Positions 11,757 through 12,302 of a DNA stretch of 30,593 nucleotides are shown piece by piece. Below the pieces are notes generated by a model. It was not told where the DNA came from. It ran no database searches and saw only the letters and a list, made by a program, of their open reading frames with translations. A program made the translations under genes and the position numbers. This DNA comes from an uncultured Acidimicrobiaceae bacterium (GTDB lineage: Bacteria; Actinomycetota; Acidimicrobiia; Spongiisociales; UBA5794). How positions within the stretch are numbered: the stretch's first letter is position 1; each line of letters begins with the position of its first letter. The DNA lies in contig CAYUDA010000001.1 in assembly GCA_964443425.1 (NCBI GenBank), positions 1-30,593 on the forward strand. The letters are read 5' to 3'.

Positions 11757-12302
11757 TCAACCGGTGGTCTCCGTCTCGAGGCGTGCCACGATGCCGTCGA
11801 CGACTCCGGCGACGTCGAGGTCGGAGGTGTCGACCACCAGGTCGTAGTTGGCGGGATCGAGGTAATCGATCCCGTAGTAGACGGCGTAGCGTTTCGATTC
11901 GGAGGCCCTGCGGGCCTCGGTGTTGCGCCTCGTGGTCTCCAGGTCGACGTTCTCCGCCTCGCTCCCCCGCCGGTCTCCGTAGATCCGCTCCGCGGCAACG
12001 TCGAGCCGCACGTCGAGGAACACCTTGAAGGCGTCCGGGATGAAATGCCACGCCAGGCGGGAGTCGATGACGAACCCGTCCCGTGTTTGCCCGAGCCGGC
12101 GGCTCCGGGCGTCGATCTCGTGGTCGATGGCGTCGTCGTGCTCGGCGATCCGGGACAGCTCGAGCACCGAGATCCCCCGCTCCGCCGCCATCTCCCGCAT
12201 GAAGTCACCGGCCGAGACGTGGTCGAGTCCAAGGCGGCGGGCGAGGGCTTTGGCGACGGTGCTCTTGCCCGACCCGGGCCGCCCCGAGATCGTGACGATC
12301 AC
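11757..12302 (-). CDS. cmk: Archaeal-type (COG1102-like) cytidylate kinase, P-loop NMP kinase (181 aa)
   Basis: IVTISGRPGSGKSTVAK, HVSAGDFMREMA, IDHEID, VIDSRLAWHF, R..SESKRY..YYGID, YDLVVDTS. These match the archaeal-type CMP kinase pattern. It lacks the guanylate-kinase signature (TTR.PR.GE..G..Y.F). Confidence 0.85.
   Translation of the reverse strand: MIVTISGRPGSGKSTVAKALARRLGLDHVSAGDFMREMAAERGISVLELSRIAEHDDAIDHEIDARSRRLGQTRDGFVIDSRLAWHFIPDAFKVFLDVRLDVAAERIYGDRRGSEAENVDLETTRRNTEARRASESKRYAVYYGIDYLDPANYDLVVDTSDLDVAGVVDGIVARLETETTG

Follow-up and report, generated by a model that had tools for sequence, protein, structure and literature searches.

An archaeal-type nucleoside-monophosphate kinase in the guanylate kinase slot of Acidimicrobiia genomes, a probable non-orthologous displacement of Gmk

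The window analysed here, the whole stretch of 30,593 nucleotides from an uncultured member of the Acidimicrobiia, contains a long array of minus-strand genes in the order pyrR-pyrB-pyrC-carA-carB-pyrD-pyrF-mihF-X-rpoZ-coaBC-priA-fmt, where X denotes the gene that is the subject of this report. The features on which the argument draws are the following.

6088 to 6921, plus strand: PPK2 family polyphosphate kinase (TIGR03709, 371 bits)
10220 to 11416, minus strand: coaBC, the downstream flank of the conserved cluster (TIGR00521, 410.6 bits)
11421 to 11753, minus strand: rpoZ, RNA polymerase omega (TIGR00690, PF01192)
11757 to 12302, minus strand: X, a predicted 181-aa P-loop nucleoside-monophosphate (NMP) kinase of the archaeal-type 'cytidylate kinase' family (TIGR02173, PF13189)
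12355 to 12825, minus strand: mihF, actinobacterial integration host factor (NF041260, 129.8 bits; PF22525)
12698 to 13753, minus strand: pyrF, the upstream flank and end of the pyr operon (NF001273, 201.5 bits)

The X open reading frame begins with a GTG at 12302 and ends with a TGA at 11757–11759, and its stop codon is separated from the GTG of rpoZ by 3 nt. The coordinates given for mihF and pyrF are those of the longest open reading frames, with their domains at residues 57–155 and 114–340 respectively, and the real mihF start is probably internal. The rpoZ open reading frame encodes 110 amino acids with the omega domain beginning at about residue 35, reflecting either an N-terminal extension or a real start further downstream. 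A scan of the 10–14 kb portion of the window found no promoters or terminators. Elsewhere in the window, positions 4416–5342 (minus strand) encode a response-regulator receiver fused to a partly matching GGDEF domain (profile positions 5–92 of 161).

In gmk-bearing relatives the gene order is pyrF-mihF-gmk-rpoZ-coaBC, such that the guanylate kinase gene lies where X sits here, as stated in the preliminary description of this DNA; X is, in agreement with that description, the sole gene between mihF and rpoZ in the window, and has no Gmk signature. Gmk is regarded as near-universal and essential in bacteria, and is a node of (p)ppGpp control over GTP pools.

The family assignment of X follows from several comparisons. 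First, it matches the NCBIfam model TIGR02173 (cyt_kin_arch) with 134.1 bits against a cut-off of 102.1, spanning profile positions 1–165 of 169, and scores 131.9 bits with this model in a genome-wide profile search; its top Pfam match is PF13189. Secondly, there is no Gmk model (TIGR03263 or PF00625) among its NCBIfam and Pfam matches, which places it outside the Gmk family and decides the comparison of TIGR02173 with TIGR03263 proposed earlier; the PyrH profile (TIGR02075) also has no match to X in NCBIfam. Thirdly, the bacterial Cmk model TIGR00017 gives 51.8 bits, split in two stretches and far short of its cut-off of 135.55, and X is without the insert of about 40 residues found in the NMP-binding domain of bacterial Cmk. 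The motifs noted previously are present in the translation: SAGDFMRE at residues 30–37, DSRLAWHF at 80–87, SESKRYAVYYGID at 134–146, and YDLVVDT at 153–159. The P-loop (GRPGSGKST) is intact and the LID arginines R106, R131, and R138 are conserved in an alignment with 99 relatives. With these elements and no insert, X has the make-up of the short single-domain NMP kinases of about 170–190 aa. Motif comparison revealed no guanine-specific feature readable from its sequence.

The predicted structure is in accord with these assignments. The AF2 model of X, built on 99 relatives, has a pLDDT of 93.6 and aligns with the Swiss-Prot archaeal Cmk models with TM values of 0.80–0.93 at 30–43% sequence identity. 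The best PDB matches identified by Foldseek are the PF13189 proteins 3fdi and 3hdt (E 6e-10, TM 0.74–0.82), although these are uncharacterised structural-genomics targets with about 20% identity to X and are uninformative on function. Bacterial Cmk (TIGR00017; PDB 2cmk, 1kdo, 4die, 2h92) also ranks with the nearest solved folds (E about 1e-8 and TM about 0.7 in Foldseek) and has in common with X the P-loop, an [ST]xGxxxR motif, and a D-[GS]-R motif; shikimate kinase and Fap7 are other near folds, and all three of these match with about 20% identity. The PDB search found no solved structure of any member of the X family, and we know of no member that has been characterised. Both fold and sequence resemble Cmk, not Gmk, and X is a predicted ATP-dependent nucleoside-monophosphate kinase of the archaeal 'Cmk type 2' family.

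The archaeal members of this family (TIGR02173, with Swiss-Prot entries from Methanococcoides, Sulfurisphaera, Haloarcula, Pyrococcus, and others) share with X the same length and an insert-free domain. To our knowledge the name 'cytidylate kinase' was given to the family by similarity and not from assays. The setting of X is unlike the archaeal one, however, as it is found in a bacterium with a bacterial Cmk, in the gmk slot, and where gmk is missing; we therefore infer GMP to be its substrate, and not the CMP of the family name.

The complement of NMP kinases was determined in the source genome, an Acidimicrobiia metagenome-assembled genome (MAG) of 2.01 Mb in 370 contigs that is 86% complete, and in three congeners, G001 (98% complete), G002 (94%), and G004 (88%). 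Neither TIGR03263 nor PF00625 has a match in the source genome, even at E values up to 1, or in the three congeners (G001 being searched to E 0.01). The earlier option that gmk has moved elsewhere thus finds no gene to support it either here or in better-assembled congeners, and with both profiles returning nothing in these genomes relocation is not supported. A canonical bacterial cmk is present in the source genome (C249:2047–2673, 201 bits) and is retained in 28 of the 29 X-bearing Acidimicrobiia; pyrH did not turn up in the incomplete source MAG but is present in five of five X-bearing relatives. With cmk and pyrH in the lineage, Gmk is therefore the only one missing among the NMP kinases checked (Cmk, PyrH, and Gmk), which answers the earlier call to search for all three. 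A UMP/CMP kinase role for X, suggested from its place after the pyr genes, is unneeded where canonical cmk and pyrH are present, and its UMP-kinase part is rejected given pyrH in all five relatives. The source genome also encodes guaA (GMP synthase), so GMP is made and a kinase is needed.

The completeness of the source genome and its division into 370 contigs raise the concern that gmk was simply missed in an incomplete or mis-binned MAG, but we give almost no credence to this explanation. The gmk slot itself is assembled and occupied by X, and 28 other genomes agree, including the single- or few-contig assemblies G169 (Aquihabitans sp., 1 contig), G091, G229, and G282. With the slot assembled and several of the carriers closed or nearly so, incompleteness fails to account for the pattern.

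This pattern was examined in a set of 41 close relatives and in 301 Acidimicrobiia genomes that were sampled evenly and have a completeness of at least 85%. Most of the genomes compared are MAGs, and three that are unpublished (G038, G256, and G510) enter the tallies as single gmk-bearing counts, with no claim resting on them. Ten of the close relatives have X above cut-off and no gmk, 29 have gmk and no X, and two, which are only 61–63% complete, have neither. Across the class sample there are 26 X carriers, none of them with gmk (0/26; carrier G229 gives a weak gmk match only, 1.5e-7), while gmk is present in 272 of the 275 non-carriers. Wherever the locus of an X-bearing genome was fetched the mihF-rpoZ slot holds X (29/29), and these loci come from six families in more than one order; cultured carriers include Aquihabitans daechungensis and Aquihabitans sp. 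McL0605. The arrangement is common to the genus and is seen in about 9% of the class, and so, on the question raised previously of whether it is ordinary for the lineage, it is a recurrent but not the ordinary state. X and Gmk share the slot mihF-[ ]-rpoZ-coaBC with mutually exclusive distributions, and the reaction inferred for X is the Gmk-like one, ATP + GMP -> ADP + GDP. X nonetheless differs from Gmk in having no detectable Gmk signature and a different NMP-binding architecture, and is related to Gmk as an analogue in the P-loop kinase superfamily rather than as an orthologue.

One genome with X in the slot, G010, also encodes a divergent Gmk-like open reading frame of 272 aa (L150:879–1697, minus strand, contig 45). 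It scores 51.5 bits with PF00625 and 62.8 bits with TIGR03263 (cut-off 160), and retains the GMP-site motif (GPSxVGKG and SRxPRPGExDGxDYHF); we take it for a relic or a paralogue.

The PPK2 gene of the window lies 5 kb from X and is conserved near the locus in many relatives, whatever their gmk or X state; a second PPK2 is encoded on contig 81 of the source genome. Class III PPK2 enzymes can phosphorylate NMPs, and the preliminary description raised the option that the PPK2 of the window supplies the GMP-to-GDP conversion. If this enzyme or its contig 81 counterpart made GDP from GMP with polyphosphate, X would be unrelated to the loss of gmk. Orthologues of the window PPK2 are, however, present in most gmk-bearing relatives as well as in X-bearing ones, and the search of X-bearing G013 (97% complete) found none. 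PPK2 distribution therefore does not co-vary with gmk loss, and a specific role of PPK2 as Gmk substitute is rejected on these grounds; we consider the explanation very improbable.

The relationship between the two states of the slot was investigated with a tree of the concatenated flanking genes pyrF, mihF, rpoZ, and coaBC from 56 loci. The gmk and X states are interleaved in this tree, with at least 12 switches between them, six of which are forced by well-supported branches, and one genus (g34) holds both states. All six independent pairs agree with gmk loss across the genome (sign test, p = 0.03). When a gmk locus is compared with an X locus by blastn, the similarity spans coaBC-rpoZ, ends at the rpoZ start, and returns at the mihF stop; the open reading frame alone is exchanged.

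Complementarity of X and gmk is also seen outside the Acidimicrobiia. Among 81 Methylococcales genomes (completeness of at least 90%) gmk is missing in seven, and the five that carry X are all among those seven; X is absent from all 74 gmk-bearers, and canonical cmk is kept in all five X carriers. In one class of Acidobacteriota (151 genomes) the single X carrier is the only genome without gmk, and no Gmk domain was found in a complete gammaproteobacterial chromosome that carries X. In the Methylococcales, Acidobacteriota, and gammaproteobacterial carriers X is not adjacent to rpoZ, and the complementarity is therefore independent of the slot. There are departures from the pattern. Clostridium bowmanii is a counter-example that carries both X and gmk, and the Saccharibacteria show no X/gmk pattern: Gmk-like matches occur in 23 of 101 genomes, most genomes have neither gene, and three of the five X carriers have sub-cut-off Gmk-like matches. 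We thus rejected the Saccharibacteria as a further replicate.

We consider it probable that X is the cell's GMP kinase and represents a non-orthologous displacement of Gmk in situ. Displacement of this kind was proposed in the preliminary description, and it is upheld by the presence of X in the mihF-rpoZ slot and by searches in which gmk was found neither elsewhere in the genome nor in the more complete congeners. The accompanying suggestion that the kinase itself supplies GMP-to-GDP conversion fits the complementarity of X and gmk in three phyla. Genomic position and complementary distribution both point to GMP as the substrate used in the cell. Activity of X on CMP or dGMP is also possible, although the presence of a canonical cmk argues that CMP would not be its main task here.

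A different explanation is that X is a second (d)CMP kinase, with GMP handled by an enzyme that has escaped recognition (for example a promiscuous Adk, a kinase like AK6/Fap7, or a Gmk that has diverged very far) and with the slot acting as a permissive insertion site after gmk loss. The assignment of X to TIGR02173 and its Cmk-like fold are in keeping with this, as are the coexistence of some X relatives with gmk and the divergent Gmk-like open reading frame of G010. However, a second Cmk would be redundant, since 28 of 29 Acidimicrobiia carriers and five of five Methylococcales carriers already have cmk, and there is no Gmk-like sequence in the source genome or G001 at the E values searched. 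Moreover, it leaves unexplained both the match between the presence of X and the absence of gmk in three phyla and the repeated precise swaps of an open reading frame at one locus, and in dozens of genomes it provides no enzyme for the essential phosphorylation of GMP. We therefore consider it unlikely, and favour X as the GMP kinase.

As GMP kinase, X would perform the essential conversion of GMP to GDP in this lineage in place of Gmk. The gmk open reading frame between mihF and rpoZ would have been precisely replaced by X, probably via recombination in the conserved flanks, and through such a precise replacement X would inherit the place of gmk in the pyr-mihF-[ ]-rpoZ-coaBC transcription unit. 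The inhibition by (p)ppGpp that is described for the Gmk enzymes of Firmicutes and Actinobacteria would probably be lost with X in the place of Gmk. X is named a CMP kinase by every database, and pathway reconstructions of these bacteria would therefore show a false gap together with a false duplicate.

These observations may extend to the archaea, where the gene for GMP kinase was reported in 2014 as unidentified (PMC4177761); a further paper does not treat the GMP kinase step (PMC3261824), and our full-text literature search found no paper that describes this displacement of Gmk or identifies the archaeal enzyme. In four archaeal control genomes TIGR02173 is matched above its cut-off, and gmk and bacterial cmk are not above theirs. 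Given these controls and the 2014 report, we put forward, with somewhat less than even confidence, the reading that the guanylate kinase missing in archaea is the TIGR02173 family or a part of it, and that members of this family have been borrowed repeatedly in at least three bacterial phyla to replace Gmk; canonical archaeal members would then phosphorylate GMP, either alone or with CMP. If so, gmk would not be essential in all bacteria. The swaps seen in bacteria point to a specific family as the candidate for the archaeal enzyme.

The X proteins of the Acidimicrobiia fall into three groups. Group A (families f1 and f3), which includes X of the window, has the motif SAGDFMRE, and its nearest relatives outside the Acidimicrobiia are from DPANN-like archaeal MAGs with 49–55% identity. 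An archaeal link, in one direction or the other, is therefore plausible for this subgroup from sequence comparison, in keeping with the possible transfer raised earlier. Group B (f9) is encoded on the opposite strand and has a C-terminal tail of 70–100 aa. The long forms of proteobacteria and acidobacteria have a homologous tail, and group B clusters with them. Group C (f41, f45, and f50, including the cultured Aquihabitans) forms a long separate branch. In the kinase-domain tree a single clade is not rejected by the AU test for either A+B+C (p = 0.052) or A+B (p = 0.155), and separate origins of the three lineages are not established from this tree; the case for a separate origin of group B consequently draws on its architecture and orientation. 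We note that the P-loop of group C is G-x-P-G-[SA]-G-T-[ST]-T, with the Walker A lysine changed to threonine (L025–L031; e.g. L027:2994–3521, Aquihabitans sp.), and that these genes are still found in the gmk slot of gmk-less genomes.

The long forms of X, which occur in Methylococcales, Burkholderiales, Bryobacter, and Acidimicrobiia f9, have a C-terminal domain of about 70–125 aa, encoded at the following positions.

L102, 3002 to 3379: long-form C-terminal domain
L127, 2008 to 2394: long-form C-terminal domain
L021, 1978 to 2313: long-form C-terminal domain
L042, 2662 to 2997: long-form C-terminal domain

This tail has no match in Pfam, and its AF2 model has a pLDDT of 85.5. The PDB matches to the model are almost only ParB/Srx-fold proteins (ParB/Noc/KorB, sulfiredoxin, free serine kinase, and SbnI), with a few further uncharacterised entries such as Atu1540, and are weak (E 6e-3 to 0.7, TM about 0.4). 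From the modelled fold, the long form of X may be a fusion of an NMP kinase with a ParB/Srx-like module that binds nucleotides. A different elaboration is seen in the Saccharibacteria genome G321 (0.8 Mb, no detectable gmk), which has tandem X-family paralogues (L096:2462–3055 and 3059–3688; C6:15929–17014) that may be divided between two NMP substrates.
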